DNA of 64,000 bases from Ferruginibacter sp. (GTDB lineage Bacteria > Bacteroidota > Bacteroidia > Chitinophagales > Chitinophagaceae), in contig OZ252000.1 of the NCBI GenBank assembly GCA_965247025.1, positions 1,169,458-1,233,457 of the forward strand. Reading direction: 5' to 3'. Shown piece after piece: positions 9,528 to 30,575 of this stretch. The translations under genes and the position numbers were made by a program. The notes under the pieces were generated by a model. That model did no database searches. It was not told where the DNA came from and saw nothing but the letters and a program-made list of their open reading frames with translations. How positions within the stretch are numbered: the stretch's first letter is position 1; every line of letters begins with the position of its first letter.

Positions 9528-9649
9528 AAAGACCCTCTTTCAAGACATCCTCCACAATTCACTTGCGTTCAGCTTCTTTACACTTAACTGATCCCGGCCA
9601 TAGGTTGGCACCTTTTGCCTGAACGTTCAGCACCATAATTTTTGGATAC

Positions 9650-15590: not shown

Positions 15591-15886
15591 AGAGTTTATT
15601 TATTAACTATTATATTATAAAATAAGATTTGAAGAATAAACATATATCTTTAAACACGTTGATCAATATCTTACTTGTAAATTCCACGACATTTTTTTTG
15701 TATTTGTAGTTATTGGCTTTCTTTTCCAGAATTGAAAGCCTAATCTCATTATCCTATTTATAATAATACAGTAAAATATGCTGATACAGAAAATTTCAGT
15801 CACAGGCTGCTTAGTTCTTGCCGACTATTGAACTTCTGTTTCCAAAAAACAAACAACATAAGGCTAATACTAAAAATTACACTTAT

Positions 15887-18800
15887 ATGGTCAGGAACCT
15901 GCTTACTACGGTTATGATTTTCATCTGTTCTATTGCATTTTCGCAAGTTAACTATCCATGCGGAGTTTATTTTAGTTCTACTTACAACAATGCATTGTAT
16001 GGCGCATGGACCAAGTGCTATCCAACCGGAGATTTTACAATGGCCGCCTGGATACAATTAAGAGACAGCGTATGGGCAGGCAAAGAAATGGATATTTTTC
16101 AACGGGAGGATTTTGATTTCACGAGTACCGACCGGCTCAACCTTTATCTCGCTGTTGACGGGCAATTGAAATTCCGTACAAATGTAAACCGCAATGGTGG
16201 ATCTGTTTTGGATAGTGTAAGTTCAGGTGTTAAACCTGATCCTTTTAAATGGTACCATGTGGCTGTGTCATTTACTGCTACCGGAGAATGCACCCTGTTT
16301 GTAAATGGAAATGCATCGGGCGGCAAAAGTTTTGGCGGCCCCAGAAGTATTGCCTATCCATACAACGACTTTTTGACCATTGGAGGACGTTTTAACCCAG
16401 CTACTTTTGGATATGACATCAAAACTTACAGGGGATATATGGATGAGGTGGCCTTTGCTTCTAAAGCGTTTAACGAGTCCCAGATCAGAATACTTGCAAA
16501 TGGCCTTCAAAAAGGAGATGCTTTTTTAGCCACCAACCAAGTGGTTGCATATGATAAGGAAGATACTTATCCAGGTGTGGTAAATTCGGGTATTGGCACT
16601 GGGCAGGTTGGGCTTGTCGGGCAACTACGTTTTTGCCCCGATCCTCCGGTAACAGTTGTTGACCCGAATCCTTCAATTGTAGGAAATGATGGTCTCTTAG
16701 ATCCTACTTTAGCAGGACTGGATTTTAACAAATTTATGAAAGGAGCAGCAACTGACGGCATCACAAAACTATTAATTGTTAAGGCTGTAAAAAACAATAA
16801 CCCTATTACATTTTCAGGCCCTGGATTGAAAGATGGAACTTTTAGTAGCCTTATAAATCAAAATAGCAAACTTAATTCCATAGTAATCACACCAATTGAT
16901 GTGCCTGGAAAAGGAAAATATGCTATCGCTATATACAATGCTCCGGATGGTTACGGAAGCAACTGGCCATCTTTTGCAGCCAGCAGCCGGGATGTAACAA
17001 TAACAGTTACTAATTCTGAAAGTATTGTAATAAAGCTTGTTAGCCCCCCCGTCATTATGGTACATGGTATGTGGTCAAATCCAGATGTCTGGCAAGAAGG
17101 TAAAAGCGTCTATGGCGTTGGTGCATACAATACAAGTTTTGCATACTTCTTAAGAAATTATAATAACAGTAAATTCAATCTTTTTTTTGCTGATTATAAA
17201 GCCGATAATTTCAGGACATTTGACCCTCTTGATCCGGAGAGCCGACCTGGCAGACTTGCAGTAAAGAAAGCTATTGATGAAGGCTTCCTATATTACAAAA
17301 ATATGCTGGGAATTGCAGTATCTCAGGCAGATATCATAGGTCACAGCCTTGGGGGATTACTTACACGAAGTTTTGCAGCAGATAAATTAGACGGCATTAA
17401 ATATTTTGAAAAAGAAAACTACAATAAGGGATATGTTCACAAACTTATTACCCTGGGCACACCACATAAAGGAAGCCCAATGGGTGGCTTTTTAATCAAA
17501 TATTCAAAGCAGTGGGCTAAATTGTCTGAGCAAACAGTTTTAAAAATCAATACGCTACAAAATCTTTTAGACTGGACACATCATCCAATCGGCTCGTGTC
17601 ACTCTGGCTTTGACTATACAACAAATAAAACTCCCTATATAAATTTGGGAACAACACCACCATTTAAAACTTTTGCAATTGCAGGTAATCATCTTGCAGA
17701 CATGAGCAATAGTATTAGTGGTGCAGGCGGTGAGTTATCGCTAAACGTGGGTCTAAAGTTTATTAGTGGAGGCTCCGAAGATTTAAATACTATTTTTAAA
17801 CCTTTGTTGCCATGCGTGCCTAACAACATTCCGGTAGCCAACGATTTGATTGTAACAGTAAATAGCCAGAAAGGTAATGGAAGTAAGTGGCAGCTTTTGG
17901 GTGGAACGGGACATTCAGGTCCTGCCTTTAATACAGAAACCAATAGTATAAATATCTTCACGAAAGTGTATGACCTTTTGCTATCAGACAATCCAGATGA
18001 CTTTGGCACAGGCTTTCCATCTCCTCTTGAAATTACCGAGGATTGCTTAAATGGCAGACCAGCAATGACAAATCCGGCCGATGCTCTGGTTGCTCCAAAG
18101 GCAGCTCTGATTGAGGACATACAAAACAGTGGATATATAAAAATATCTTCACCAGTAAATGGGTATAAGGTTAGATACGGTATCGATAGCACGATTCAGC
18201 TTGGGTTTACAGAAGAAAATGGAGCAAAACCCCAGTCTGGTTTTTTTATGATTCAGGGTATAAATGACTGGATTCCTGTACCGGAAGTTGCTCCTTTTAC
18301 GATAACTTATAAAATGCCCTCCTCAACAGGCATAGGTTTTTTAAATATAGCCGCATTTTCCCTAGACAGTTCGGGGTTGCGAATGGCAGATACTGCACAT
18401 ATTGAGGTGCTGCCACCAGAAATAATTGACAGCCTGATTGCTTCACCTGCTTCAATAAATTTAGATTCAATTAAAAGGGAGGCAAATATATCGATGAAGG
18501 TATATTACCAAACAGGGGCAGATACAATTTTGGCTAATCTGAATAGCTTGGCAAGCGGTATTAAGTATAGCTCAGGCAAACATGAATCAGTTTTTAAAGT
18601 TAACGCTGGTGGATCAATTGTGGCTATAAGTGCTGGTGTTGACACACTTACAATTGAGTACAATGGTAAAAAGTGTTTTGTAGCAGTAATTGTGGATTCT
18701 AATTTTATCGGCAGGTCTTTTAAACCTGATAGCATTTCTTTTACTCAGGAAGATAAATTAATTAATGATCTCCCATTTGCTCTTAATGCCTCTGCATCTT

Positions 18801-19687
18801 ACAGCCTTCCGATAACTTATCAATTGCTAAGTGGCCCGGTAACTCTTAGTGGTGATATCGTTTCTATTATTGATACAGGACTTGTGCAGATTAGGGCAAG
18901 TTGCACCGGAAACAGCTATTACAAAGCTGCCATTCCTGTTACAATTTCATTCAGAATTAACCGTATTGCCCAGTATAAGTTTGTTGGCAATGGTTCATGG
19001 CAAAATGCTGCCAACTGGGTAGACAACAAGGTGCCTCCTGTTTTATTACCTAAAGGTTCTGAAATTGTTATTAATCCAGCCACCAATGCAGAGTGTGTAC
19101 TTGATATAGCGCAAACTATATCCAAGGATGCAAAATTCACAGTTAATACTAATGCAAAACTCAGAGTAACCGGTGACCTTAAAATCGTAAAGCATGGACT
19201 TGGCGAACTCTATCAGGGAGGCATCATTTTTTATATGGACAGCAACGGCCACGGTCTTATATGTTCACCGGCTGATATTGGTGCATACCCGTGGGACCTG
19301 ACTATATTTGATCCGCAAAACTATCAAAACTATAACCCGCCACTTGTTGGCGCTTCGGCTACTGCAATAGGTAATGGTTATGCAAATACTGTTAGTACGG
19401 TCTCTAAGTTAGGTGCAGGAAATTATGCGGCGGCTAAATGCAGATCATACAATGGCGGAGGCTTTGCTGATTGGTACCTCCCCTCCAAAGATGAGTTGAA
19501 TTTGATGTACAATAATCTAAAAATTACAGGGATGGTTTCTTTTTCATCTTCCAACAATTACTTCTACTGGAGTTCCAGTGAAATAGATAACAAAAATGTA
19601 TGGATACAAAAATTTGATGATGGCGCACAACAAAATTTTAACTGGAAAAATAACGTCGTTTACGTCCGGGCAATACGGGCATTTTAA
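15887..19687 (+). CDS. multidomain secreted protein: LamG-like lectin, alpha/beta-hydrolase (lipase), Ig-like repeats, GxW module, C-terminal DUF1566
   Basis: - Signal peptide MVRNLLTTVMIFICSIAFSQ starts at the ATG at 15887.
- LamG pattern: FTMAAWIQL...WYHVAVSF...LFVNGN...YRGYMDEVAF.
- Lipase box VIMVHGMWSNPDVW, IIGHSLGGLLTR (GHSLGG) and LGTPHKGSP.
- C-terminal DUF1566/Lcl-type motif GGIIFYMD...GLICSP...ADWYLPSKDELNLMY...YWSSSE. Confidence 0.85.
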   Translation: MVRNLLTTVMIFICSIAFSQVNYPCGVYFSSTYNNALYGAWTKCYPTGDFTMAAWIQLRDSVWAGKEMDIFQREDFDFTSTDRLNLYLAVDGQLKFRTNVNRNGGSVLDSVSSGVKPDPFKWYHVAVSFTATGECTLFVNGNASGGKSFGGPRSIAYPYNDFLTIGGRFNPATFGYDIKTYRGYMDEVAFASKAFNESQIRILANGLQKGDAFLATNQVVAYDKEDTYPGVVNSGIGTGQVGLVGQLRFCPDPPVTVVDPNPSIVGNDGLLDPTLAGLDFNKFMKGAATDGITKLLIVKAVKNNNPITFSGPGLKDGTFSSLINQNSKLNSIVITPIDVPGKGKYAIAIYNAPDGYGSNWPSFAASSRDVTITVTNSESIVIKLVSPPVIMVHGMWSNPDVWQEGKSVYGVGAYNTSFAYFLRNYNNSKFNLFFADYKADNFRTFDPLDPESRPGRLAVKKAIDEGFLYYKNMLGIAVSQADIIGHSLGGLLTRSFAADKLDGIKYFEKENYNKGYVHKLITLGTPHKGSPMGGFLIKYSKQWAKLSEQTVLKINTLQNLLDWTHHPIGSCHSGFDYTTNKTPYINLGTTPPFKTFAIAGNHLADMSNSISGAGGELSLNVGLKFISGGSEDLNTIFKPLLPCVPNNIPVANDLIVTVNSQKGNGSKWQLLGGTGHSGPAFNTETNSINIFTKVYDLLLSDNPDDFGTGFPSPLEITEDCLNGRPAMTNPADALVAPKAALIEDIQNSGYIKISSPVNGYKVRYGIDSTIQLGFTEENGAKPQSGFFMIQGINDWIPVPEVAPFTITYKMPSSTGIGFLNIAAFSLDSSGLRMADTAHIEVLPPEIIDSLIASPASINLDSIKREANISMKVYYQTGADTILANLNSLASGIKYSSGKHESVFKVNAGGSIVAISAGVDTLTIEYNGKKCFVAVIVDSNFIGRSFKPDSISFTQEDKLINDLPFALNASASYSLPITYQLLSGPVTLSGDIVSIIDTGLVQIRASCTGNSYYKAAIPVTISFRINRIAQYKFVGNGSWQNAANWVDNKVPPVLLPKGSEIVINPATNAECVLDIAQTISKDAKFTVNTNAKLRVTGDLKIVKHGLGELYQGGIIFYMDSNGHGLICSPADIGAYPWDLTIFDPQNYQNYNPPLVGASATAIGNGYANTVSTVSKLGAGNYAAAKCRSYNGGGFADWYLPSKDELNLMYNNLKITGMVSFSSSNNYFYWSSSEIDNKNVWIQKFDDGAQQNFNWKNNVVYVRAIRAF

Positions 19688-19872: not shown

Positions 19873-22800
19873 CTAACCATTCTTCTTAAAATTCTCCGCC
19901 TGCTCAAATATCTCCACGTACACTTCATCCCTTTCTACAGGCGGGTAGCCAAACTCATCCAGCAGCAATATCAGCCCGACTTTTAAAGCAGATTTAATGT
20001 CTTCTCTTTTGTTCCAGTCGGGAAATTTGGCCTGGCCTTCCACCAGTTCTTTTACGGCTTTGGAGAGTTCTATTAATTTGTCTTCAGGGTATTTGAAATC
20101 GTACTTTATGCAAAGTGCCAGCAGAATATCATAAAATGCTTTTTCTTCAAAATCTATTCCCAGGGCCTCCCCTGCTGAAAACTCACGGTGCACTTCCCAG
20201 ATCAGGTTGGTGAGCTCTTCGGCCATGTCTTCATACACTTCGCTGCGGAGAATATCTGCTTCATCCCGCTGGTTGTAGCGATCTACCAGTACCTGCATCT
20301 TCCTGGAGAAGTCAATGCCTTTGATTTTATTTACCTTCTTCATTTCTCCAATCACTTTGGCTAAGAGTTGCTGGAGGAGTTTTATTTTAGTGTTGGGCAG
20401 TTTAATCTTGTCAATCTTTGCCAGGTAGTCTTCATCAAACAGATCCTGTTCTGTTTCGCCTTCATCACCCAGCTTAAATATTTCCTGTACACCATCGCTT
20501 TGCAAGGCATCCTTGATCATTTCCCGTACACGTGCATTCATTTGAGCAGTGTCTGGTGCATCACCTTTGGTGAGTTTGAAAACGATAGACCTTACAGCTA
20601 AATAAAAGTGGATGGTATCCTTTTCCGGCTGGGTGATTTGCTCACTGCCTGCACAGATATCGTAGGCTGCTTTCAGGCGCTTTACAAGACCCATGAAACG
20701 GGTTTCAATGTCTTTGGTTCGTTGTGCAAATTCAGCGGCTACATTCAGCGTATGCAGTTGCTCTAATGTGGTGCCGGTGTAATACTTGGTGCTGTTGAAC
20801 TGATGAAATAGGTTAGCAAGCAGGTCTAAATGATTGCGTACAATTATCAGCGATTGGGCAATGTCTTCAAAGTTGTCTTCATCGCCTTTGTTGTATTGGG
20901 CCAATGCCAGGTTCATTTGTTTTTTGATGCCGATGTAATCTATCACCAACCCTTTGTTCTTGCCTTCAAACTTGCGGTTTACCCTTGATATGGTTTGTAT
21001 CAGGTTATGCTGCCTGATGGGCTTGTCAATATAAATGCTGTCAAGGAAAGGCACATCAAAACCAGTGAGCCACATGTCAACTACAATGGCTATTTTAAAG
21101 TTTGACTTTTCATTTTTAAACTCCGTGTCCAGTGTTTTGCGGTAATCTGATGTGCCCAGTAATTTGTACAATGTTTCATTGTCATCCTTATCCCTGGTCA
21201 TGATCATTTTGATCCGCTCTATGGGCTTTATTTTCTTCTGTTCATCCTCCGTTAAAAGTTCATTGTCTGCTGCAACTTTTACTTCATTCCAATCAGGACG
21301 TAGCTCAATGATGTTCTTATACAATTCATAAGCAATCTCCCGGGTGCTGCACACAAACATGGCTTTGCCTTTTACGGTGGAACCTTCGGAGACTCTCTTT
21401 GTGTAGTGGTTTACAAAATCTTCAGCAACATCTTTTAAACGCTTTGGGTCTCCTATAATGGCATACATCTGCGCCATAGCTTTTTTACTGGCTTCCACCT
21501 GGTGCTCATTGCTTCCATCATCTGCACACTGTTCATAGTATTTTTCAATGTCCTGCAGTTTGCTGTTGTTCAATAATACCTTAGCCGCCCTGCCCTCATA
21601 CACAATACGAACCGTGATTTCATCCTTAACTGATTCCGTCATGGTATAAGCATCCACCACTTTTCCAAACACATCCAGTGTAGCATCAATGGGTGTACCA
21701 GTGAAGCCAACAAATGTTGCACTGGGTAATGAGTCGTGGAGGTATTTTGCAAAGCCATAGGTTTTGGTTACGCCTTTCTCTGTCACTTTCACTTTCTGGT
21801 CAAGATTTAGCTGGCTGCGGTGTGCCTCGTCAGAAATACAGATTACATTGGTTCTGTTGGTAAGCAGCTGTGTATCTTCTGTAAACTTGTGTATGGTGGT
21901 TAAGAAAACACCACCGCTCTGCCTGCCCTGAATCAGTTCTCTTAAATGTACCCTGCTCTCCACGCTTACAATGGTATTGTCCCCAATAAACTTTTTGGCA
22001 TTGGTAAATTGCCCGGCAAGCTGATCATCAAGGTCGGTACGGTCGGTAATCAATACAATGGTGGGGCTTTCAAAATACTCACTCTTCATCAGCAGCCGGG
22101 TAAGGTACAGCATGGTAAAACTTTTACCACAACCGGTGGCACCAAAATAGGTGCCCCCCTTACCGTTACCCAATGGCTTTTGCGATTGCTTAATGCTGTC
22201 ATACAGCTTTTTGGCTGCATAGTATTGCGGATAGCGGCATACAATCTTTTCGTTCTTCTTTGAGCTATCAGGGATGTAAATAAAGTTGCGGATAATATCT
22301 CTCAGCCTGTTCTGGTTAAACATGCCCTGCACCAGTGTGTACATACTGTCTATGCCATCCACGTCCTTCGCAAGACCTGCCACCCTGCGCCAGGCATAAT
22401 AAAAATCGTAGGGAGCAAAAAAAGAACCTGCTTTGTTGTTTACACCATCGCTGATCACACAAAAAGCATTGTATTTAAACAGCTCGGGAATATCTCTTTT
22501 ATACCGGGTGGTTAACTGCACATAGGCATCGTGAATGGTGCATTCTTCCCGGATGGCGCTCTTAAATTCAAAGACCACTATTGGCAGTCCATTGATGTAA
22601 ATAATACCATCAGGAATGCGCTTTTCGCTCCCGGCAATTTCAAGCTGGTTTACAAATTTGTAGATATTAGCATCAGCCGGGTACTGCTCCTGCGGATCAG
22701 ACAATGCAATAATATCCAGGTCAACGCTGGCCAGTTGTGCTTCCAGGCCGGTGTAATTGATTAACTCAATGTGAATGTCTTTTTGGTTGCGGTCTTCCCG

Positions 22801-23079
22801 CTTTAAAATAAAGCCATCACTCAACCATCGCAGAATTGTTTTGTTGGTTTCATACAGATCGCTGGCAGGCAATGTTTTTAGCTGAAGTACAATTGATTTT
22901 GCCTCGTTAACCGTAAGCTGGCTGCTTTGATACCTGGCCAATAAATAGCTGAGTAAATCTGCTTCTATTAATACTTCCTCTTCGGCTCTTGTAATGGACT
23001 CACCGAGGCAATGCGGAAAGCTTTCTTTCCCGAGTAATTCGGTAAATGCCCTTTCTAATTTTTCTTCGGTGAATTTCAT
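19873..23079 (-). CDS. hsdR: type I restriction enzyme R subunit
   Basis: 1068 aa. Helicase motifs GATGCGKSFT (I), SDEAHRSQ (II), FTGTPI (III) and QTISRVNR (VI). It is the last gene of the hsdM-hsdS-X-hsdR operon. Confidence 0.95.
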   Translation of the reverse strand: MKFTEEKLERAFTELLGKESFPHCLGESITRAEEEVLIEADLLSYLLARYQSSQLTVNEAKSIVLQLKTLPASDLYETNKTILRWLSDGFILKREDRNQKDIHIELINYTGLEAQLASVDLDIIALSDPQEQYPADANIYKFVNQLEIAGSEKRIPDGIIYINGLPIVVFEFKSAIREECTIHDAYVQLTTRYKRDIPELFKYNAFCVISDGVNNKAGSFFAPYDFYYAWRRVAGLAKDVDGIDSMYTLVQGMFNQNRLRDIIRNFIYIPDSSKKNEKIVCRYPQYYAAKKLYDSIKQSQKPLGNGKGGTYFGATGCGKSFTMLYLTRLLMKSEYFESPTIVLITDRTDLDDQLAGQFTNAKKFIGDNTIVSVESRVHLRELIQGRQSGGVFLTTIHKFTEDTQLLTNRTNVICISDEAHRSQLNLDQKVKVTEKGVTKTYGFAKYLHDSLPSATFVGFTGTPIDATLDVFGKVVDAYTMTESVKDEITVRIVYEGRAAKVLLNNSKLQDIEKYYEQCADDGSNEHQVEASKKAMAQMYAIIGDPKRLKDVAEDFVNHYTKRVSEGSTVKGKAMFVCSTREIAYELYKNIIELRPDWNEVKVAADNELLTEDEQKKIKPIERIKMIMTRDKDDNETLYKLLGTSDYRKTLDTEFKNEKSNFKIAIVVDMWLTGFDVPFLDSIYIDKPIRQHNLIQTISRVNRKFEGKNKGLVIDYIGIKKQMNLALAQYNKGDEDNFEDIAQSLIIVRNHLDLLANLFHQFNSTKYYTGTTLEQLHTLNVAAEFAQRTKDIETRFMGLVKRLKAAYDICAGSEQITQPEKDTIHFYLAVRSIVFKLTKGDAPDTAQMNARVREMIKDALQSDGVQEIFKLGDEGETEQDLFDEDYLAKIDKIKLPNTKIKLLQQLLAKVIGEMKKVNKIKGIDFSRKMQVLVDRYNQRDEADILRSEVYEDMAEELTNLIWEVHREFSAGEALGIDFEEKAFYDILLALCIKYDFKYPEDKLIELSKAVKELVEGQAKFPDWNKREDIKSALKVGLILLLDEFGYPPVERDEVYVEIFEQAENFKKNG

Positions 23080-23096
23080 AGCCTAAGTATAAATTA

Positions 23097-26000
23097 TCAT
23101 TCGCTGCAAAAGACTTTTAATTCAATATTACCAACGGTTGATAAATAATGATACACATTCCCAAGCAACAACAATATATCTTCCGAAGCTTTTGATTTTC
23201 GTAACGAGGGCTGAACTATATACATGTGAAACACCATTTGCTTTGAATACTTTGCCTGTCCCAACAAATTTTCCAGATCTTCTTCTGTTCCTTTTATCAA
23301 TCTGCTACAGGTTATGCCATTCAGCCTTTTTGTAATTCTTTTAAGTAAATGATCGAAGAATTCTTTTCCTTCTCTGTGTTTCCATTTTAGTGCTTTTTGC
23401 GCCTGCCCACAAACCTGATAAAAGTTATCAATGTCGTTTCCTAAGACGCCTTTTTTTGCATACTTAAGATGGTACAAATGAACATCAATAGTATTGGCTG
23501 AATCGTTAATTCCAATAATATCTGCAATTTCAGATTTCCCATCATCATCGTAAACAATTTGGAAATTACTTTTGATTTTTTCAATAAAGTAATACTGGAT
23601 AGAATCTTGAATATAAGGAGCAATATCCTGAGATTCTTTTTCAATATTAACTCCAATCCAATTATCCGGAATTACATTTTCTGCAGGAATTACATCCGGT
23701 TGTACTTTAAGGTTTACGTATAAATTTTGAAGAAGTTGAGAACCATCAGCAAACCAAATTATGGGAGTAAATTGCTGAAAAAAGTCTTGAAGACTTTTAG
23801 TTGTTTTTCCGTATTGAATACTACAAATTTCATCTGAGATTTGAGAAACCTTAAAAAAGGCTTCTGCTGTTGCTATATTCTGTCCAAGTTCAATTTCGAA
23901 AAGAACCGAGTTTTGGGCTGTGTCGACGGAGAAAATGATATTTCCACTTACTTCTGGATTAAATAAATTGAGTTCAGTGAAAGTAATATCAAGTGGTAAT
24001 CCATTTATTTCAATCACATAACGATCTTCTGCATGTTCATACATTTCCGGGTGCCAATCTATTAGGATGGGCATTATTGAAGGCCTTTCAGTAATTTTTT
24101 TAATTGCCAAAGTGTGCTGAAGAACTATATTCGGATCTATTGTTTCATCTTCGACCATTTCTCCTACAGACTTGCACCATTTAGTCAATTCATCTAAATT
24201 GCCCCTTTGGTAAGACCAAATCTTACCTTTCACTGAACATCCCAAAGAAATTTTTTCACCTTCTTTATACCCTACTCCGAATATGTTATTCTTGATTAAA
24301 GTTCCTTGTTCTAGAAGTTTAATTCCATCCTGAACACCTTTTCCAAAATATGATTGGAATGTGATGTCTTGTCCAATACCTTTTCTTGTACCTACGTTAT
24401 AGAGAGATAACCTATTGATGTTGTGAAATATTCTAAATACATTCATCCCGGTAATCAGGCTTGTGTTACCTTCTTGGAATATTGCATTCATTAAATCGTC
24501 AGATGAAAATCCTTTAAATGAGGTATTTAAGAAAACTCTGTTAATTCCGGGTCTTAAATCCCAATGAACTATAATAATATCCCACTGCAGATTTTGAACT
24601 GTCTCAAATTTGCCCCATTCTACTTTTTCAATTTTTCCCAAGATAATTACTAGCGTATCTGAACCATTAGTTCGACTAAAAACATGCTCATAATTATCAA
24701 TGCCTGAAACACCTTTCTCCCAATTTAAAGGATGCCATGTACTTACAATATTCTTGAATATAACGGTACTCATTGCCGGATTAATCTCAGCAAATGGCAC
24801 CTCTGATTCATCAAGATCATTGAATTTATCTAAAAAGCTCTTAATATTTATTTCCCTTTCTGTAGCGCTTGCGCTTAGTCGAGGCAGAAGTAAATTCCAA
24901 TCAGAATTTCTTGAATAAAGTTGATCTAACTCTTCACTAATTGGAGGGTAAGCTACATTAGTTATAAAACTTGCATCGCCTAATTCATTGTATGAAGTTC
25001 TTGTAAAACGTCCTATAAATTGAAGAGTGATTGGTAAACTTTGTCTTTCATCATGTACTGCAGCAATTTTTAGATTAGGCAAATCAAACCCCTCACCGAG
25101 CATATCCACACAAATTATTATTAAATGCTCTTTTCTTTTTATTGCTTCAATTTTATCTTTTAATCCAGATACGCCATTATAAACAACAACCGGTTTAAAC
25201 TCTGTGTATTTCTTATAGTACTCAAAAATTTCTAATGCCCTAATTTTAGTCATACATCTTGCCATGACTATGTGATTGAACCCTGCTGCGATATCCTTTC
25301 TAAGTTGTTCTACTGCTTTATCTGCAATCTTTTCATCACCAAGTTTTTTATTATATTCTCTAATTGGTAAGTAATTTATTTTTTTATAGTACTTCTGCTC
25401 CTGTGCTTTTTTTAAAGAAAAATTGAAAATTGTTTTGCCTTGCAGAGATTTTCCATCATTTCTAAAAGGTGTAGCTGTAAAAAGAAAGACTTTTTCTTTG
25501 TTGAATCTGCTAATCAATTCTTTCCAGGTATCCGCTTCTGAATGATGGGCTTCATCAATAAAAAAATGGGAAAACAATTCATTAAACATTGCTTTTTCAT
25601 TACTTGTTCGGCCAGTTAAAAGGGCCATTGTTGAAACAACAACATTTGACTTTTTAATAAATTCTTCTAGATCTTCAACACTTTCAAAACTGCTATTTAA
25701 TATTCCAACAATTGGATTTTCACAGCTTTCATCTACTATGCCATAATCTTTTAATAAACCGAGAGAAATAAACTTATCTGAAATTTGTGTTCGCAAAGAA
25801 TCTGAAGGAACAGAAACAAGTAATCTCTTACATTCATTTGCAATAAGAGCTGATAGCATCGTTTCTGTTTTACCAGTACCTGTCGGCATTACCACAATTG
25901 CTTTGTCATCCGGATTTTGCACATGCGCCAATATAGAATACAAAGCTCCAATTTGCGGAGGCCTTAGTCCCTTTATTCCAGCTACTACATCTTCTTTGAC

Positions 26001-26336
26001 AAACTTGAATTGTCCTTTCCAGGAAGCCGTCACTTCTTCTGGAGTACTGGCCACAAATAAGGGATGTTTTAACCATCTTTTAAACCTTATTATTCCTGAT
26101 TCAAAATCGGCCTTTTTAGGTTTTTTTGAAACCAGTAAAATATATTCATATTCTTCCCCTACAAATCCTTTATCGCTTGTTAGCAAATACTTGATCCCTT
26201 CTGACTGAATAACGAAAGGGTCAATAGTTTCAATTGAAGCATCATCTACAATAACCTCCCTACCGAAATACTGCCATATTTCATTTTCTGATTTTGAGTA
26301 AACCAAGTTGGCTAGTTTGGGAAAGGTTAATGGCAT
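23097..26336 (-). CDS. SF2 (ResIII/DEAH) helicase with ~550-aa uncharacterised C-terminal region, embedded in the type I R-M operon
   Basis: - 1079 aa with helicase motifs VVMPTGTGKTE (I), FIDEAHHSE (II), FTATPFR (III) and LQFIGRFTR (VI).
- No methylase or specificity motifs.
- The C-terminus contains SEIADIIGINDSANTIDVHLYHLKYAKKG, loosely PD-(D/E)xK-like.
- Gaps are 10 nt to hsdS and 17 nt to hsdR. Confidence 0.85.
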   Translation of the reverse strand: MPLTFPKLANLVYSKSENEIWQYFGREVIVDDASIETIDPFVIQSEGIKYLLTSDKGFVGEEYEYILLVSKKPKKADFESGIIRFKRWLKHPLFVASTPEEVTASWKGQFKFVKEDVVAGIKGLRPPQIGALYSILAHVQNPDDKAIVVMPTGTGKTETMLSALIANECKRLLVSVPSDSLRTQISDKFISLGLLKDYGIVDESCENPIVGILNSSFESVEDLEEFIKKSNVVVSTMALLTGRTSNEKAMFNELFSHFFIDEAHHSEADTWKELISRFNKEKVFLFTATPFRNDGKSLQGKTIFNFSLKKAQEQKYYKKINYLPIREYNKKLGDEKIADKAVEQLRKDIAAGFNHIVMARCMTKIRALEIFEYYKKYTEFKPVVVYNGVSGLKDKIEAIKRKEHLIIICVDMLGEGFDLPNLKIAAVHDERQSLPITLQFIGRFTRTSYNELGDASFITNVAYPPISEELDQLYSRNSDWNLLLPRLSASATEREINIKSFLDKFNDLDESEVPFAEINPAMSTVIFKNIVSTWHPLNWEKGVSGIDNYEHVFSRTNGSDTLVIILGKIEKVEWGKFETVQNLQWDIIIVHWDLRPGINRVFLNTSFKGFSSDDLMNAIFQEGNTSLITGMNVFRIFHNINRLSLYNVGTRKGIGQDITFQSYFGKGVQDGIKLLEQGTLIKNNIFGVGYKEGEKISLGCSVKGKIWSYQRGNLDELTKWCKSVGEMVEDETIDPNIVLQHTLAIKKITERPSIMPILIDWHPEMYEHAEDRYVIEINGLPLDITFTELNLFNPEVSGNIIFSVDTAQNSVLFEIELGQNIATAEAFFKVSQISDEICSIQYGKTTKSLQDFFQQFTPIIWFADGSQLLQNLYVNLKVQPDVIPAENVIPDNWIGVNIEKESQDIAPYIQDSIQYYFIEKIKSNFQIVYDDDGKSEIADIIGINDSANTIDVHLYHLKYAKKGVLGNDIDNFYQVCGQAQKALKWKHREGKEFFDHLLKRITKRLNGITCSRLIKGTEEDLENLLGQAKYSKQMVFHMYIVQPSLRKSKASEDILLLLGNVYHYLSTVGNIELKVFCSE

Positions 26337-26346
26337 TTTGTAATGT

Positions 26347-27582
26347 TTAATTTTCTATTGTTGCTAGTTTGGAAAGAAGAAGATCCCTCAACTCATAAAG
26401 CTTTTCATTTTGTTTCTTAAATTGTGAAATACTTGCATTTACTGGTTGAGCAATCTTTTGGTATACTTTTAAAATTTCATTATGCGGCTTCACAATTTGC
26501 TTTTCATTCAAAGATTGAATTGTGATTGCACTTTGACCAGATCCTATCTTAATTTCATCCAGCAGTTCCTTAAAGCTATCACTTTGCAGATATTCATATA
26601 AATAGAGATTACAACCCTCTATTTCAAATTTCCTGAACCAAACTACATTACCATCTTTAAAATAGAAAGTTTCATCTTCAACAAGATAGCTGTCGCCAAG
26701 TAATGAACCCACAGCAGTTAATAAAATGTCTCCCGGCAACGGATGACCAAATGACTTTGATATTTCAAGAAACTTAGCCTCAGATATATACAGCAAATCC
26801 TTGATAGCAACCCCTTCTTTTTTTTGTTTAACTTCACCAGCTCTATAGAATGGCACTCCTTCCTTTTTATATTCAGACTCGAAAATTCTTTTACTTGAAG
26901 TAATCTGACAAAAGGATGATATTTTTTTGACTTCCCATCCGGTTGGAATATCTCCCAATTCACTTTCAATAAATTCCCCACTACTACTTTTATAAGGCTT
27001 TCCATTGTCATCTGGAAATTCAAAATCAACAAACCATTGCTTGTAAATAGCCTGTGCGGTCTTTTCCAGTTTTTGTATTAGTCGCTGGTTAAGGGTTATG
27101 CGTTTTTGGATAATGTTGTATTCCTTTACTATCTCTTTTTGTTTGTCTGGATGTGGAATGGGTAATTGCATGTCGCATAACGCCTTCCAATGCAATCCTC
27201 CTCTTACATCAGCATCAGTATAAAACCAGGCATTACGGTCAAACTCTCTACGGGAAAACCACATCATCAAATATTCAGGATAAAGGAGTTTCTTATCAAT
27301 GATTTCAAAAACATCATAGGCAGGCGAAACCATAAATTCTTCATCAGTCTTTGACATTGAAACAGGCAATCTGTAATCTCTGCCTACATGCATTCTATTA
27401 CAAGCAAATTGATTCTTCCTTACGATCTTATAGACAGACATATCAGTACCAACTATATTGGCTACAGAAGGCATAAAGAACTTGTCAATATTAATTCCCA
27501 ATAACCTTTCAGCTTTCTGTGCAGTATTTCGAACCTTTACTTCTCTTATATAATCGCCCAAACGTTTATAATTTGATTTCAT
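26347..27582 (-). CDS. hsdS: type I restriction enzyme specificity subunit
   Basis: 411 aa with two target-recognition halves separated by conserved helices (QKLEKTAQAIYKQWFVDFEFP; ...LYELRDLLLSKL). It overlaps hsdM by 17 nt. Confidence 0.9.
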   Translation of the reverse strand: MKSNYKRLGDYIREVKVRNTAQKAERLLGINIDKFFMPSVANIVGTDMSVYKIVRKNQFACNRMHVGRDYRLPVSMSKTDEEFMVSPAYDVFEIIDKKLLYPEYLMMWFSRREFDRNAWFYTDADVRGGLHWKALCDMQLPIPHPDKQKEIVKEYNIIQKRITLNQRLIQKLEKTAQAIYKQWFVDFEFPDDNGKPYKSSSGEFIESELGDIPTGWEVKKISSFCQITSSKRIFESEYKKEGVPFYRAGEVKQKKEGVAIKDLLYISEAKFLEISKSFGHPLPGDILLTAVGSLLGDSYLVEDETFYFKDGNVVWFRKFEIEGCNLYLYEYLQSDSFKELLDEIKIGSGQSAITIQSLNEKQIVKPHNEILKVYQKIAQPVNASISQFKKQNEKLYELRDLLLSKLATIEN

Positions 27583-29125
27583 AACCCAATTCTTTAAATA
27601 CGGTTAGCAAATCATTTTTAGACTGAGCTTCAGCTTTCAGCAGGTCGGCAAATTCAATTTGCAATGCCTGCATCTTTTCATCAAAGTCAATATTCTCATC
27701 CCGGTTTACAAACTCAATGTATTTGCTTGGCACCAATGAAAAATCTTTTTTTGCTACTTCATCAAGCGAAGCTGAGTAGCAATATTCCGGTATGTCTTTA
27801 TAACTATTCTTTTCCTGTTGCCAGGTGTGGTAAGTATTGGCAATGTCTTTTATGTGGTTACTTCCAAACTGGATATACTTCTTTTCAAAAGGTTCTCCTA
27901 TCTGCCGCAAATCCATAAATAAAATTTCCTTTTCACGGTCACGGTAATGGCGTTGTTCATCGCCAATGCTCCTGCTATGTGCTTTTTTATTCTTGTTCAA
28001 TATCCAAACAGTAACACTAATATTGGTAGTGTAAAACATATCCTGTGGCAATACCAAAATGGCTTCCACCATATTGTTTTCAATCAACTTCCGGCGTATT
28101 TTATATTCCTCGCCACCGCCGCTTAATGCACCATTGGCCAAGATAAAACCAGCAATGCCATTGTCGCTTAGTTTGCTTACAATATTTAGTATCCAGGCAT
28201 AGTTGGCATTGCTTTTTGGCGGCACATCATAGCCCCGCCAGCGAGGGTCTGTTATCAGTTCTTTATCGCCCCGCCAGTCTCTTTGGTTAAAGGGTGGGTT
28301 GGCCATTATAAAATCAGCTTTCAGGTCTTTGTGCTGGTCATCGCCAAAAGTGTCGGCAGCTTTTTCACCAAGGTTGCCGCTAATGCCCCTAATGGCAAGG
28401 TTCATCTTAGCCAGCTTGTAGGTGGTGTTGGTATATTCCTGCCCGTAAATGCTAATTTCTTTTTTGTTGCCGTGGTGGTTTTCAATAAACTTAATGGATT
28501 GCACAAACATACCACCGGAGCCACAGGCAGGGTCGTAGATAATGCCTTTGTATGGCTCTATCATTTCGGCAATCAGGTTTACAATACTTTTGGGCGTGTA
28601 AAATTCGCCCTTGCCTTTTCCTTCAGCCAGTGCAAACTTGCTCAGGAAATATTCATATACCCGGCCCACAATATCATGCGCTTTGTCTTTGAGGGTATCA
28701 ATATCATTAATGGTATCCAGCAAAGAAGAGAGCTTGGTAATATCCAGCCCCAGCCGGGAAAAATAGTTGTCTGGCAAGGCACCTTTAAGGGCTTTGTTGT
28801 TCTTCTCAATATTGTGCAGGGCAGTATCAATCTTTAAGGCAATATCGTTTTGCTTTGAGTTTTTGATGATGTAACTCCAGCGGCTTATTTCATCTAAAAA
28901 AAATACATTGCTTTGGTTGTAAAACTCTGCCATTTCAATGTACTTCTCCTGCCCCTTGGCAATGAGTGTTTTGCGGTGTTCTTCAAACTTGTCACTGGCA
29001 AACTTTAAAAATATCAGTCCAAGTACCACGTGTTTGTATTCTGCCGGTTCCACACTGCCTCTCAGTTTATTCGCCGATTCCCAAAGGGTTACTTCAATAG
29101 GGTTTTCTTTTACTTGTTTAGCCAT
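27566..29125 (-). CDS. hsdM: type I restriction enzyme methylase subunit (N6-adenine)
   Basis: 519 aa with an HsdM N-terminal domain, AdoMet motif IYDPACGSGGMF and catalytic motif MANPPFNQ (NPPF). Confidence 0.95.
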   Translation of the reverse strand: MAKQVKENPIEVTLWESANKLRGSVEPAEYKHVVLGLIFLKFASDKFEEHRKTLIAKGQEKYIEMAEFYNQSNVFFLDEISRWSYIIKNSKQNDIALKIDTALHNIEKNNKALKGALPDNYFSRLGLDITKLSSLLDTINDIDTLKDKAHDIVGRVYEYFLSKFALAEGKGKGEFYTPKSIVNLIAEMIEPYKGIIYDPACGSGGMFVQSIKFIENHHGNKKEISIYGQEYTNTTYKLAKMNLAIRGISGNLGEKAADTFGDDQHKDLKADFIMANPPFNQRDWRGDKELITDPRWRGYDVPPKSNANYAWILNIVSKLSDNGIAGFILANGALSGGGEEYKIRRKLIENNMVEAILVLPQDMFYTTNISVTVWILNKNKKAHSRSIGDEQRHYRDREKEILFMDLRQIGEPFEKKYIQFGSNHIKDIANTYHTWQQEKNSYKDIPEYCYSASLDEVAKKDFSLVPSKYIEFVNRDENIDFDEKMQALQIEFADLLKAEAQSKNDLLTVFKELGYEIKL

Positions 29126-29977
29126 CCGTTGGTTGGTGTGTTTTTGTGGGTTTTAGTTGTTTGGTAATAAAGATAAATGAAGGTATCAGGTATCCTTTGT
29201 TTCAATTTGTGTTTTGTTAATTAATGTTCTAACAGGCTGCAGGAGACTGGTTAAAGCCTTGATTGTTCGGAGTATATTGGAGATAATGGAAACCAGATTA
29301 CTGATTGTGTTCAAGGTTTAGCAAGCTTGTTAGCCAGGCTTTTTACTGTAACTGTAAATATGCATCATAATAACTACAACACAATTGTTTTTTCACCCTT
29401 TATTTTGTAGTACAAACAACCACATGGCATTAGCCCTGCGGTATAAAAGCTGCATAAAAATTAACTGCCCAATGGCTGCCAGATAGATAGGAAAGCCCGT
29501 AGGGCCCCATCCGGCTTGCCCAAAGGGGAAGCCGAAGAAGCTCAGCCTATGCCGCACCTGGAATGTATAGCTGGAACCTGCATTGACAGATATGCTATAG
29601 CCCCCAGCCCAAAACCTTTGTACTAAAAAAGGCTGCAGCATACACCAGCCTTTACAATCAGCTTCCCCATTAGTCAGACGGACATTTCAGCAGCGCCACT
29701 GCTACTTCTTTGCCTTAGGGTACAGTTTGTGTGGGTCACCCATAGCGGCAGTTTATCCAGGTCAAAATAGATACGGCCACACATTATGAGGGGAATAAAA
29801 AAAGCCCTCACTTTGCCGGGTGCAAACTGGTACGGGAAATTTTGAAAATCTCAGGGAGGTATTGTATTGCCAGGAATTTGCTGTTGCAGGATTTGCGTGA
29901 AGAGCCACCTTTTAAAATACCTGTTACCGCTATCTGCAACCACTGCCGGACCAATCCAGCCACGGCTGATTCCAGAC

Positions 29978-30353
29978 GCCGCTGGTGTATTTTCAGCAGC
30001 CGCTACAGTATTTTTAGCAATCGCTGCGGTATTTTCAGCAACCGCTGGGGTATTTTCAGCAACCGCTGCGGTCCGCTATACAATCAGGGTGTAGTCCGGG
30101 GCATGGCTGCTGTTCTCCCAGCCATGGCTGCTGTATTTCCGTCGGTGGCTGTTCAATGGGGTGCCTGGCTGGCAGTACCCCAGCCACCGCTGCAAATACC
30201 CGGGTCATGGCTGAATTTACCGCAGCTACCGCTGCAACTATTTCAGCGGCTGCTGCAACTATTTTAGCGACTGCTGCATTTATTTCAGCCACCGCTGCAT
30301 TTATTTCAGCGACTTCTGCAAGTATTTTAGCCCCTGCTGCAAATTTGCAAGCC
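29978..30353. repeat. degenerate 21-bp periodic array (~18 units)
   Basis: Clean units lie at 29978-30061 (GCCGCTGGTGTATTTTCAGCA and variants) and 30228-30353 (ACCGCTGCAACTATTTCAGCG and variants). The middle keeps the GGCTG phase every 21 nt. No frame stays open on either strand. Confidence 0.75.
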
Positions 30354-30575
30354 AGCGTCAATATTGTGCAAGCTCCGCCTGCTGTTTAACGGGCTACCGC
30401 TGCCGTTACCCCGGTGATGGAAAATTTATTTGTCACTTTTATATTACTCATTTTTTATCCAACATTTATTACAACAAATATTTAAGAATTCCTGGTGGTG
30501 CTTTAACTTTTTTTTATATTCTTCTTTTCTACTTTGTTGTCTCAAACCCTTTTTTAAAATCTTAAATAAAAAATT

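Follow-up and report, generated by a model that had tools for sequence, protein, structure and literature searches.

[quoted passage not shown]

A Type I restriction-modification (R-M) operon of Ferruginibacter sp. carries a gene for a large helicase, here called X, between hsdS and hsdR. This location raises the question of what X does, and whether it acts with the restriction enzyme or apart from it. The window analyzed is a stretch of 64,000 nucleotides from contig OZ252000.1. All four ORFs were found on the minus strand at the coordinates given earlier. The order hsdM, hsdS, X, hsdR, the 17-nt overlap between hsdM and hsdS, and the 10- and 17-nt gaps on either side of X, all reported in a previous sequence-only reading, matched the ORF coordinates exactly:

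27566-29125, minus strand: hsdM, Type I methyltransferase subunit (519 aa; Pfam and PADLOC)
26347-27582, minus strand: hsdS, specificity subunit (411 aa; Pfam and PADLOC)
26337-26346, minus strand: hsdS-X junction, 10 nt
23097-26336, minus strand: X, whole gene (1079 aa)
23080-23096, minus strand: X-hsdR junction, 17 nt, right edge of the cargo slot
19873-23079, minus strand: hsdR, restriction/translocase subunit (1068 aa; Pfam, PADLOC and TIGR00348)

Judged by its sequence matches, the host operon is a Type I R-M operon by gene content, with HsdM, HsdS, and HsdR all identified. HsdM matched Pfam N6_Mtase (8e-103) and HsdM_N (4e-22) and PADLOC MTase_I (1e-143); HsdS matched Pfam Methylase_S and, across residues 53-406, PADLOC Specificity_I (1e-60). 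HsdR had matches to Pfam HSDR_N, SWI2_SNF2, T1R_D3-like, and T1RH-like_C, to PADLOC REase_I (1247 bits), and to TIGR00348 (2e-132); in a BLASTP comparison of the pair, it was not a paralogue of X (E 0.27). The GC content is 0.336 for X, 0.345 for hsdS, 0.410 for hsdM, 0.433 for hsdR, and 0.394 for the whole window. The impression, gained by eye, that X and hsdS are more A+T-rich than hsdM and hsdR was thus borne out (about 0.34 versus 0.41-0.43). Terminator-like or promoter-like signals between the operon genes did not exceed shuffle expectation, and with its tight packing X is presumably co-transcribed with the R-M operon.

The slot between hsdS and hsdR was compared across a sibling set of 80 operons whose HsdR is 75-85% identical to that of the window, and was resolved in 47. 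HsdS of the window shares its conserved C-terminal end (LLLSKLATIEN, followed by the stop codon) with the sibling operons, and there the slot has its left edge; on the other side, homology sets in again precisely with the ATG of hsdR. The slot measures 8-84 nt in about 11 operons and 1-7.7 kb in about 36. Its contents include RhuM, AAA_13, AAA_15/21, TIR+SLOG+ThsB-TIR, Schlafen/HATPase_c_4, DUF6088+AbiEii, AbiH, PDDEXK_4, GajA+GajB, RT, KAP, and 2xGmrSD. The hsdS-hsdR slot of this one Bacteroidota Type I operon family is a site of hypervariable, interchangeable defence cargo; the proposal that R-M loci act as landing pads agrees with the dozen other defence gene types found there. In the E. 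coli prr locus, the PrrC gene occupies the hsdS-hsdR slot. AAA_13 proteins, which belong to the Pfam family of RloC/PrrC, fill the slot in 6-7 sibling operons. The description of X as sitting in the PrrC position was apt. DarTG2 in EPEC (PMC12255303) and TgvAB in V. cholerae VPI-2 (PMC11411939) are independent defence genes in the same slot.

X itself was present in none of the 47 resolved sibling operons. It fills the slot in six of about 20 close relatives: besides the window, X directly follows hsdS in loci L026, L167, L168, L169, and L170, and the hsdS-X gap is 2-11 nt across the six operons. Recurrence of X between hsdS and hsdR, for which a survey had been suggested, was thus seen among close relatives, and neither in the siblings nor in over 90% of distant relatives. 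X and a GmrSD enzyme share one slot in L168 and L170, and other cargo can separate X from hsdR. Between L167 and L169, X is 87% identical, HsdM 71%, and HsdR 67%; the GC content of X is about 0.33 whatever the GC of its flanks. The low GC, these discordant identities, and the many other contexts in which relatives occur argue that X came from elsewhere and evolves separately, as a cassette, in line with the separate origin suspected from its base composition. Stand-alone copies of X have their own conserved upstream motif.

The protein has a four-part layout:

25977-26336, minus strand: X residues 1-120, variable N-terminal domain (~120 aa)
24987-25976, minus strand: X residues 121-450, SF2 helicase/translocase core of ResIII/XPB/RadD type (Pfam and motifs)
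23667-24986, minus strand: X residues 451-890, helical linker and beta-rich middle domain (AF2 model, Foldseek)
23100-23666, minus strand: X residues 891-1079, C-terminal restriction-endonuclease-like domain (~190 aa; AF2 model and invariant residues)

Residues 1-120 had no Pfam match at E<=1, and neither they nor residues ~450-895 received an assignment from Pfam, NCBIfam, or PADLOC. The N-terminal domain is the least conserved part of X, with 15% identity in far homologues compared to 46% for the motor. The motor matched Pfam ResIII (5e-24), DEAD (1e-13), and Helicase_C. The complete SF2 motif set claimed for X is present, and all the motifs quoted, P151-T157 (PTGTGKT), D261-H264 (DEAH), T287-P290 (TATP), and Q439-R446 (QFIGRFTR), are invariant across 40 homologues. 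The nearest PDB sequences to the motor were SauUSI (7clg, the best), RadD, XPB/Rad25, and HsdR 3h1t. In PADLOC, X had a partial match to mREase_IV, and its sole DinG-model match was the Walker-A stretch (8e-5).

The AF2 model of residues 450-1079 had a pLDDT of 83.6 and a pTM of 0.78. In a Foldseek search of this model against the PDB, the top match was RdgC (2owl_B, E 5.9e-4, probability 1.0, 299 columns, with a TM of only 0.33), followed by CENP-L, beta-clamp, and TBP. No sequence-profile similarity was detected between X and E. coli RdgC (hhalign probability 0.1), and the middle domain of ~375 aa matched no Pfam family, the RdgC family PF04381 included. We tentatively describe the middle domain as having an RdgC/CENP-L-like fold, where the RdgC label stands for that one Foldseek match at TM 0.33.

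Invariant residues in the C-terminal domain are E901, Q914, D932, E936, D939, H956, K958, Q978, W985, G1016, and Q1042, which give the family an invariant E..D..HxK..Q signature. The segment EIADIIGINDSANTIDVHLYHLKYAKKG (residues 936-963) holds E936, D939, H956, and K958, which are invariant across phyla. The model of this domain (pLDDT 94) has a helix at 913-924, strands at 927-930, 940-945, and 949-957, and a helix from 969, an order of elements that matches the topology of the PD-(D/E)xK superfamily. D939 and K958 are placed as in PD-(D/E)xK; however, the (D/E) position is taken by the invariant H956. The resemblance to a PD-(D/E)xK nuclease noted in the sequence-only reading holds for the topology; a histidine stands in for the canonical acidic residue, and no solved nuclease was a significant structural match (Foldseek against the PDB, best E 0.33). 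The weak PDB fold matches were to FokI, BamHI, BsmI, and Nt.BspD6I (E>=0.33), with a TMq of 0.41-0.43 and an E of about 1.1-1.4 for FokI. The second-best BFVD match was a phage protein annotated as 'HamA C-terminal domain-containing' (E 6.9e-3, probability 0.80). On the modelled topology, a PD-(D/E)xK reading is plausible and we refer to the domain as a putative nuclease.

The sole sequence relative of the C-terminal domain in the libraries searched was the PADLOC candidate PDC-S71 (PDLC05077). Residues 896-1052 of X (~155) align to profile positions 393-546 (E 2.8e-9), and 24 of 71 X homologues match this profile as well (best 6.5e-13). About one quarter of the 589 profile positions are aligned, so that X does not match the profile as a whole, and the first ~390 positions have no match to the motor or middle domain. 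By this profile alignment, the C-terminal domain is homologous to PDC-S71, itself a defence candidate, which was obtained by guilt-by-embedding (Payne et al., bioRxiv 10.1101/2024.01.29.577857).

X is like other embedded defence genes (PrrC, DarTG2, TgvAB, and the candidates of Payne et al. 2024) in that it lies tightly packed in the same slot, where the siblings show exchangeable cargo, and is also found outside R-M operons. In sequence and architecture, however, it is unrelated to PrrC (an ABC ATPase with an anticodon nuclease), DarTG, or GmrSD-type proteins. An assignment of X as a PrrC/RloC anticodon nuclease was rejected, as X has an SF2 motor instead and no AAA_13 match. In SauUSI, the N-terminus is a PLD nuclease and the C-terminus a DUF3427 reader; Type III Res has an RE_endonuc domain and needs Mod. 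With SauUSI, X shares a ResIII-type motor, the combination of motor and nuclease (putative in X) on one chain, and the lack of its own methylase; with Type III Res it shares the ResIII-type motor and the helicase-N, nuclease-C order. X was rejected as a SauUSI-type Type IV enzyme, because the motor alone matches and neither PLD nor DUF3427 is found, and X has no similarity to the endonuclease domain of Type III Res. Modified-base readers (SRA, EVE, DUF3427, etc.) were not detected in any part of X.

Hna of S. meliloti is a single-protein helicase-nuclease with an N-terminal helicase and a C-terminal nuclease (PMC13381803), and X resembles it in this order and in its wide, sporadic distribution. 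Hna differs in its length of 845 aa, its DinG/XPD-like motor, and its canonical PD-(D/E)xK residues (PMC13381803), whereas X has 1079 aa, a motor of ResIII/XPB/RadD type, a further domain at its N-terminus, the ~375-aa middle domain, and the HxK signature. Hachiman consists of two proteins, the Ski2-like HamB and HamA with a D-GExK active site (PMC10925250, PMC11914072), and HamA most resembles a Type IIS REase (PMC10925250). X is similar in combining a helicase with a Type IIS-REase-like effector and in the weak fold similarity of its C-terminus to a HamA-C-terminal-domain protein. In contrast to HamA (DUF1837), X has H956 where HamA carries the catalytic E of D-GExK. X had no match to Hna, Hhe, Nhi, or Hachiman models, where Hna was compared by model and motor type; the same was true of HamA, HamB, Hna, Hhe, and Nhi models in the 71 homologues (for HamA, Pfam and PADLOC at E<=1). 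X was not accepted as Hachiman, given the missing HamA/HamB profile matches, the ResIII-type motor versus the Ski2-like HamB, and the lack of a partner gene. The label Hna/Hhe-like, proposed for X as a concept, survives as such, but not as an assignment: no model matched, and the motor is neither DinG-like, as in Hna, nor Ski2-like, as in HamB. The PADLOC run that had been recommended confirmed the Hsd identities and gave the PDC-S71 match in X, but no Hna, Hhe, Nhi, or Hachiman model.

X is a member of a large, widespread, unnamed protein family. More than 7000 sequences shared words with X, with a length of about 1080 aa in every one of the best 120. A profile search with the C-terminal domain returned 1615 clusters (50% identity) at E<=1e-3 and 407 at E<=1e-30; the matches always sit at the C-terminus of collinear X-like proteins. 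The family spans more than 10 phyla, including Bacteroidota, Bacillota, Proteobacteria, Patescibacteria, Planctomycetota, and Acidobacteriota. Its distribution is sporadic and accessory: homologues were found in 8 of 5426 complete E. coli genomes and on 102 plasmids, 59 of which are conjugative. On a Klebsiella plasmid, the homologue is flanked by IS5.

Across 80 genome loci, X had no conserved partner gene; the commonest neighbour cluster, a serine recombinase, occurred in 10. The Pfam family seen most often in 131 immediate neighbours was Phage_integrase (n=6). Our census of defence neighbours gives raw counts, based on crude ORF calls and incomplete annotation and set against no matched background. 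Near X relatives it found Gabija GajA/GajB, Type III Mod/Res, Mrr, the DRT UG5 RT, McrBC, an AAA_15/21 ATPase, a HipA toxin-antitoxin (TA) pair, ubiquitin-like (Bil-like) conjugation genes, Type I/IV R-M genes, and integrases. Kiwa, a DISARM-like cluster, and, inside an integrative element, Vsr/Mrr/Dcm were also among the neighbours. An E. coli homologue neighbours the retron Ec78 RT-PtuAB, and a Sinorhizobium plasmid homologue has BrxA and a WYL-domain (BrxR-type) protein nearby.

Guilt by association in about 100 loci, together with guilt by embedding, points to X as a single-protein defence factor with helicase and nuclease-like parts; the earlier idea of a helicase-nuclease defence protein is strengthened by both, with its function inferred from context. 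Our preferred reading, to which we assign a probability of about 0.62, is that X is a mobile defence gene whose one polypeptide is sufficient by itself, and that it rides as cargo in the hsdS-hsdR slot and is co-transcribed with the operon. X is probably a stand-alone helicase-nuclease defence cargo with a predicted anti-phage/anti-plasmid role. We infer its anti-phage function, DNA substrate, nuclease activity, and independence from HsdMSR. The ResIII/XPB-type motor would load on foreign DNA and track along it using ATP; the N-terminal domain, the RdgC-like middle domain, or both would bind or clamp nucleic acid and set recognition; and the C-terminal restriction-endonuclease-like domain (E936/D939/H956-x-K958/Q978) would cut the substrate as the effector. 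Embedding would provide co-regulation and co-transfer with the R-M enzyme, and for invaders that get past Type I restriction, X may be a second line of defence that works by a different mechanism. Embedding does not imply physical or regulatory coupling to HsdMSR; given the gaps of 2-11 nt between hsdS and X in the six operons, X may still have some functional tie to the methyltransferase core.

In a PrrC-like guard model, X is kept inactive by the Type I enzyme, either HsdM2S or the whole complex; once a phage anti-restriction protein (Ocr, ArdA, or Stp-like) has disabled that enzyme, X is released as a suicidal or back-up nuclease. The shared slot with PrrC, these short gaps, and the AAA_13 proteins in 6-7 siblings fit this model. 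However, 14 of about 20 close relatives and nearly all of 70 distant ones (~70% and >90%) lie outside Type I operons with no conserved partner, and most have no hsd genes nearby; X is absent from all 47 resolved siblings, stand-alone copies carry their own upstream motif, and other cargo can intervene before hsdR. We consider PrrC-type dependence very unlikely, and the suggestion that X guards the R-M enzyme or is guarded by it was not upheld. X could instead be an ATP-dependent restriction enzyme that attacks modified phage DNA, either Type IV-like (modification-dependent) or independent of a methylase in some other way. This is unlikely, though it accords with the absence of a cognate methyltransferase, the proximity of the motor to SauUSI, the partial mREase_IV match, the domain order of Type III Res, the GmrSD Type IV enzymes in the slot of siblings, and the precedent of TgvAB, which complements Type I by hitting modified phage DNA (PMC11411939). 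The absence of any known reader domain and of similarity to the Res endonuclease speaks against it, and the joint presence of X and GmrSD in L168 and L170 argues for non-redundant roles.

A fused Hachiman/Hna-like sensor of genome integrity, in which recognition of ssDNA ends, forks, or phage SSB-coated DNA by the motor sets off indiscriminate action of the nuclease and so abortive infection, is quite unlikely. The shared logic of helicase and restriction-endonuclease-like effector, the BFVD match, the domain order of Hna (PMC13381803), and the Type IIS affinity of HamA (PMC10925250), which parallels the weak matches of X to FokI, BsmI, and Nt.BspD6I, have to be set against the missing model matches, the different motor type, and H956 in place of the catalytic E; the solved HamAB, if in the PDB library, was also absent from the top 50 Foldseek matches. 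It is highly improbable that X has no role in defence and is instead a helicase for recombination, repair, or the upkeep of mobile elements, for example one that modulates RecA-dependent recombination through an RdgC-like domain, and that it hitch-hikes in variable regions. The fold match to RdgC, the frequent occurrence on conjugative plasmids and integrative elements, and integrases and recombinases as the commonest neighbours would suit such a role. X has no sequence similarity to RdgC, however, and its distribution is that of an accessory gene. Defence systems dominate the neighbours of its relatives, X recurs inside R-M operons in a slot that otherwise holds recognised defence genes, and its C-terminal domain is common to the defence candidate PDC-S71.

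The four genes of the Type I R-M operon are consecutive open reading frames on the minus strand, and profiles from Pfam, PADLOC and NCBIfam identify the system as complete.

27566-29125, minus strand: hsdM, Type I system gene (Pfam, PADLOC, NCBIfam)
26347-27582, minus strand: hsdS, Type I system gene (Pfam, PADLOC, NCBIfam)
23097-26336, minus strand: X, open reading frame between hsdS and hsdR, encoding a 1079-residue helicase protein
19873-23079, minus strand: hsdR, Type I system gene (Pfam, PADLOC, NCBIfam)

The hsdM and hsdS genes overlap by 17 nt, the gaps bordering X are 10 and 17 nt, and this spacing is a co-transcription geometry. Promoter- and terminator-like matches within the operon showed no excess over the shuffled expectation. 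The GC content is 0.336 for X and 0.345 for hsdS, against 0.410 for hsdM and 0.433 for hsdR (window, 0.394). Both the gene arrangement (order, coordinates, overlap and gaps) and the lower GC content of X and hsdS had been described in the sequence-only reading, and both were reproduced here. The possibility that X is a paralogue of the window's own HsdR was rejected; a direct comparison revealed no paralogy.

We compared the interval from the hsdS stop to the hsdR start (the slot) in 80 metagenomic sibling operons whose HsdR is 75-85% identical to that of the window. Among those with both flanks on the contig, about 11 operons have an empty slot of 8-84 nt, and in about 36 it spans 1.0-7.7 kb. 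RhuM was found in the slot of 10 operons, and AAA_13 ABC ATPases (a Pfam family that we take to contain RloC and PrrC) in 6-7. The other cargo comprises AAA_15/21 ATPases, a trio of TIR, SLOG and ThsB-like TIR, Schlafen-AlbA_2/HATPase_c_4 proteins, HATPase_c_3, DUF6088 with AbiEii, AbiH, PDDEXK_4, GajA with GajB, a reverse transcriptase, a KAP NTPase and the GmrSD enzyme pair. X is absent from the slot in all of the ~47 operons with both flanks on the contig. Similarity between operons ends at the hsdS stop codon, which follows the conserved ...LLLSKLATIEN, and sets in again exactly with the hsdR ATG. Because the cargo varies and the similarity breaks exactly at its edges, the slot is a cassette site for defence cargo. 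The equivalent of the sibling slot (loci L081-L160) in the window is 23080-26346. Single cases of cargo in this slot have been published for DarTG2, where the site was termed a potential recombination hotspot (PMC12255303), and for TgvAB (PMC11411939); a "guilt-by-embedding" survey matches the picture of a cassette site (bioRxiv 10.1101/2024.01.29.577857). The sibling operons illustrate cleanly how, in nature, a Type I R-M operon acts as a cassette holder. The edges of the slot are sharp to the nucleotide, with the stop codon of hsdS on one side and the start codon of hsdR on the other, which makes it a practical place to mine further candidates and study cargo exchange.

X directly follows hsdS in six (window included) of about 20 relatives with readable context at 59% identity or more. 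The recurrence of X between hsdS and hsdR, which the sequence-only reading had left to a survey, thus extends to five further operons, all in one subclade.

Gene order in the six operons in which X directly follows hsdS
Window: hsdM-hsdS-X-hsdR
L167: hsdM-hsdS-X-hsdR
L169: hsdM-hsdS-X-hsdR
L026: hsdM-hsdS-X-DUF6088/AbiEii-hsdR
L168: hsdM-hsdS-X-GmrSD-...-hsdR
L170: hsdM-(REase)-hsdS-X-GmrSD-hsdR

At locus L001 the X copy lies just upstream of an unrelated Type I system, and the other 13 close relatives are located elsewhere. Of 70 distant relatives, only about 5 lie within 10 kb of a Type I gene, and no distant relative is embedded; the recurrence in the slot is restricted to the one subclade.

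Between L167 and L169, X is 87% identical, HsdM 71% and HsdR 67%; between L168 and L170 the corresponding values are 79%, 87% and 82%. Because these identities are discordant, and the GC content of X stays at ~0.33 regardless of the flanks in the loci compared, the pattern fits an X cassette exchanged between related operons, rather than a single frozen operon. L026 carries a 55-bp duplication of the hsdR 5' end (9537-9591 and 11441-11495, 96% identity), with the duplicate directly after X and ahead of the DUF6088-AbiEii cargo. This looks like the footprint of a second cassette inserted at the hsdR start. In stand-alone X copies, the start codon is preceded at 60-74 nt by a shared motif, TTGGCnnCAAnnGTA. 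It has five exact matches across all X loci searched, every one at that place (L001:9927, L004:9941, L173:5941, L174:5941 and L175:5934), and L002 carries a variant. The motif may be a promoter or operator of the cassette itself. It is absent upstream of the embedded copies and from the window, which suggests that the cassette lost its own control region when it became embedded. In L169 (10252-14211), the HsdR of the X-carrying operon is 1319 aa long, versus the usual ~1070, and has a weak internal match to Y1_Tnp (IS200-type transposase); this hsdR may contain an insertion or be a fusion.

Relatives of X number in the thousands, and the best 120 are all ~1080 aa long and ~70% identical. An exhaustive profile search with the C-terminal domain recovered 1615 clusters (50% identity) at E<=1e-3 and 407 at E<=1e-30. 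Homologues at 33-71% identity occur in 80 species-representative genomes from Bacteroidota, Bacillota, Proteobacteria, Patescibacteria, Planctomycetota, Acidobacteriota and others. They are also present on 102 plasmids, 59 of them conjugative, and in 8 of 5426 complete E. coli genomes; a Klebsiella plasmid copy has IS5 elements on both sides. Clustering of ~1270 neighbouring ORFs revealed no conserved partner gene, the commonest cluster being a serine recombinase (10 loci). In a census of 131 immediate neighbours, classed by Pfam family only, the top families were integrases, recombinases and R-M methylases. The recurrent neighbours that can be named are defence systems. Neighbours include Gabija, Mrr, a UG5 reverse transcriptase, Type III Mod/Res with DUF4391 and an HKD-Snf2 protein, a DISARM-like cluster, Kiwa and McrBC; Vsr/Mrr/Dcm inside an integrative element; and an AAA_15/21 ATPase, HipA and ubiquitin-like conjugation genes. 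The E. coli homologue neighbours retron Ec78, and one on a Sinorhizobium plasmid lies near BREX genes.

This context profile is that of an accessory, horizontally moving, stand-alone defence gene and not of a housekeeping helicase. The question whether the homologues are housekeeping helicases without a link to defence is therefore answered against housekeeping: the contexts are accessory, mobile and rich in defence genes. We regard a non-defence role for X as very improbable. The RefSeq name of the E. coli homologue is still "DEAD/DEAH box helicase". A literature search by accession found no paper that mentions the E. coli, Klebsiella or Sinorhizobium homologues.

In five distant genomes (L019, L029, L055, L070 and L078; Bacillota, Bacteroidota, Planctomycetota and Gammaproteobacteria), the X homologue flanks the same cluster of Type III Mod, Res, DUF4391 and HKD-Snf2 (PADLOC C3a139), a four-gene set that may travel as an island or reflect a second recurrent association with R-M. 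Two homologues are split into consecutive ORFs (L021:9983-13249, 472+518 aa; L072:379-3399, 558+430 aa), probably as frameshifted pseudogenes or through sequencing errors. Among records labelled "phage", a homologue occurs in two only, CAKLQH020000001.1 and CAKLQF020000001.1 (Acinetobacter phage MD-2021a, 328-379 kb), and these may be MAGs of jumbo-phage or plasmid-like type. Their homologue, 26% identical across the entire C-terminal half, is annotated as UvrB, almost certainly wrongly.

The SF2 motifs listed in the sequence-only reading are all present in X (PTGTGKT 151-157, DEAH 261-264, TATP 287-290 and QFIGRFTR 439-446) and invariant in 40 homologues. Profile libraries cover only residues ~123-447 (ResIII, DEAD and Helicase_C). 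The closest solved proteins to the motor by sequence are SauUSI (7clg), RadD, XPB/Rad25 and an HsdR, and we therefore place it in the ResIII/XPB/RadD group. The N-terminal domain (first ~120 residues) is the least conserved part, with 15% identity in distant homologues versus 46% for the motor, and received no family assignment in a Pfam fragment scan.

Across 75 homologues from many phyla, the region after the motor keeps a remarkably constant length of 612-638 aa. AlphaFold2 modelled residues 450-1079 with confidence (pLDDT 83.6, pTM 0.78); the model comprises a helical linker, a middle domain that is large and beta-rich, and an alpha/beta domain at the C-terminus. In a Foldseek search against the PDB, its sole match below 1e-3 was RdgC (2owl_B; E 5.9e-4, prob 1.0), which aligned over 299 of 301 target columns, yet with a TM of only 0.33; CENP-L, beta-clamps and TBP followed. 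These matches point weakly to a pseudo-symmetric, DNA-embracing alpha/beta fold for the conserved middle domain. At the sequence level, hhalign found no similarity between the C-terminal half and E. coli RdgC. A profile of that half had zero matches to PDB sequences at E<=10, and a Pfam search with X fragments and 71 homologues returned nothing credible.

Modelled alone, residues 880-1079 were predicted with high confidence (pLDDT 94.1, pTM 0.91), and the order of secondary structure is that of the restriction-endonuclease core. D939 opens strand 2, H956-x-K958 closes strand 3, and Q978 lies in the next helix; these four residues are invariant in 71 sequences from many phyla, together with E901, Q914, D932, E936, W985, G1016 and Q1042. 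The invariant His occupies the (D/E) position of the restriction-endonuclease signature, and the Tyr before it is nearly invariant (Y955-H956-x-K958). Foldseek found no significant match to this model among the solved structures in the PDB; the weak matches include FokI (TMq 0.41-0.43), BamHI, BsmI and Nt.BspD6I. The leading BFVD matches were a podovirus protein, uncharacterised, at E 1.3e-3 and, at E 6.9e-3, a phage "HamA C-terminal domain-containing protein". In hhalign, the C-terminal domain showed no similarity to a Type III Res endonuclease domain.

The sole sequence-level relative of the C-terminal domain in the profile libraries is the PADLOC defence candidate PDC-S71. Residues 896-1052 of X align to profile positions 393-546 of 589 (E 2.8e-9), and 24 of 71 family members match it (best E 6.5e-13). 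This partial homology links the putative effector domain of X to an existing defence candidate. The match was missing from the PADLOC scan of full-length X and was recovered at 2.8e-9 with the 630-residue C-terminal fragment; a whole-protein scan can therefore miss such a domain match. No other architecture holds the domain among the best 150 representatives, in all of which it is C-terminal; these are X-like proteins, the short entries being collinear N-truncated X-like fragments. Proteins like PDC-S71 must sit among the weaker matches, beyond these 150.

In outline, X resembles Hachiman and the single-chain helicase-nucleases Hna, SauUSI and Type III Res, and falls outside all of them. SauUSI has PLD and DUF3427 parts, which X lacks. 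Hna has a DinG/XPD-like motor and 845 aa (PMC13381803), in contrast to the ResIII/XPB/RadD-group motor and 1079 aa of X. In Hachiman, HamB resembles Ski2 and the HamA site is D-GExK (PMC10925250). No named-system model in PADLOC or NCBIfam matches X beyond the generic motor.

Two independent kinds of context evidence lend good support to a putative defence role for X, and we give a probability of roughly 0.6 to X being an independent, helicase-nuclease-type defence cargo. The proposal of a single-protein helicase-nuclease defence factor is supported as to defence; the nuclease is predicted. The same proposal had X guard, or be guarded by, the R-M enzyme. A PrrC-like guard tied to the Type I enzyme would agree with the place of X in the operon, and we consider it improbable; the relatives lie mostly outside Type I operons, and the guard relation is not supported. 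As independent cargo, X would most plausibly supply a second layer that is co-regulated and co-transferred with restriction. Driven by ATP, the enzyme would load on invading nucleic acid and then cut it, with the substrate chosen by the N-terminal and middle domains. Within this cargo reading, X may act by Type IV-like restriction or by damage- or structure-sensing abortive infection.

With an invariant His in place of (D/E) and, just ahead of it, a Tyr that is nearly invariant, the signature would allow more than one chemistry and substrate. The active site could be a variant metal site using E936/D939/H956. The EndA branch of the restriction-endonuclease fold has a His/Lys/Tyr metal-independent site, and that of X could be of this kind. 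The Tyr-His-x-Lys chemistry might even be metal-independent or RNA-directed cleavage, unlike that of characterised helicase-nuclease defences.

As a probable helicase-nuclease-type defence gene carried by a Type I R-M operon, X is of a known kind; its domain composition is so far undescribed. More speculatively, X may found a new class of immune enzymes, single-protein and very widespread, that combines a ResIII/XPB-type motor, a ring- or clamp-forming RdgC-like DNA-binding domain and an E-D-HxK-Q effector. Such a class, tentative as it is, would span at least 1600 clusters (50% identity) and more than 10 phyla, with members on conjugative plasmids as well as in Klebsiella, Acinetobacter and E. 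coli. Its effector would be a non-canonical restriction-endonuclease fold common to PDC-S71; this reading as a whole we think rather improbable. The field already has hundreds of such defence candidates, and X leaves the understanding of Type I systems and PrrC-type guards unchanged. It stands out by the size and breadth of its family and its presence in clinical Enterobacteriaceae and on plasmids, and further by two unannotated, confidently folded domains and an unusual predicted active-site signature. If active, X would add a large, taxonomically broad family to the catalogue of single-gene defences, and with it two domains without a Pfam family or close solved structure. The only annotation that the family now has is "DEAD/DEAH box helicase", and this holds too for its members in clinical Klebsiella, Acinetobacter and E. 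coli and for those on conjugative plasmids.

No tRNA gene was found anywhere in the 64-kb window, and no recognisable integrase adjoins the operon. Upstream of hsdM, the region 29250-30500 has a GC content of 0.45-0.52, versus 0.39 for the window, and contains only short ORFs, none with a family match. One of these, an 82-aa ORF at 29393-29641, was rejected as an RptR-like regulator; it has an odd composition, no Pfam match and a homologue in none of the sibling loci, and looks non-coding. The operon is flanked by two proteins of ordinary Bacteroidota surface or secreted type: a 1289-aa LamG/esterase/Lcl_C protein (15818-19687, plus strand) and a 1151-aa PKD/CHU_C type IX secretion substrate (31921-35376, minus strand).
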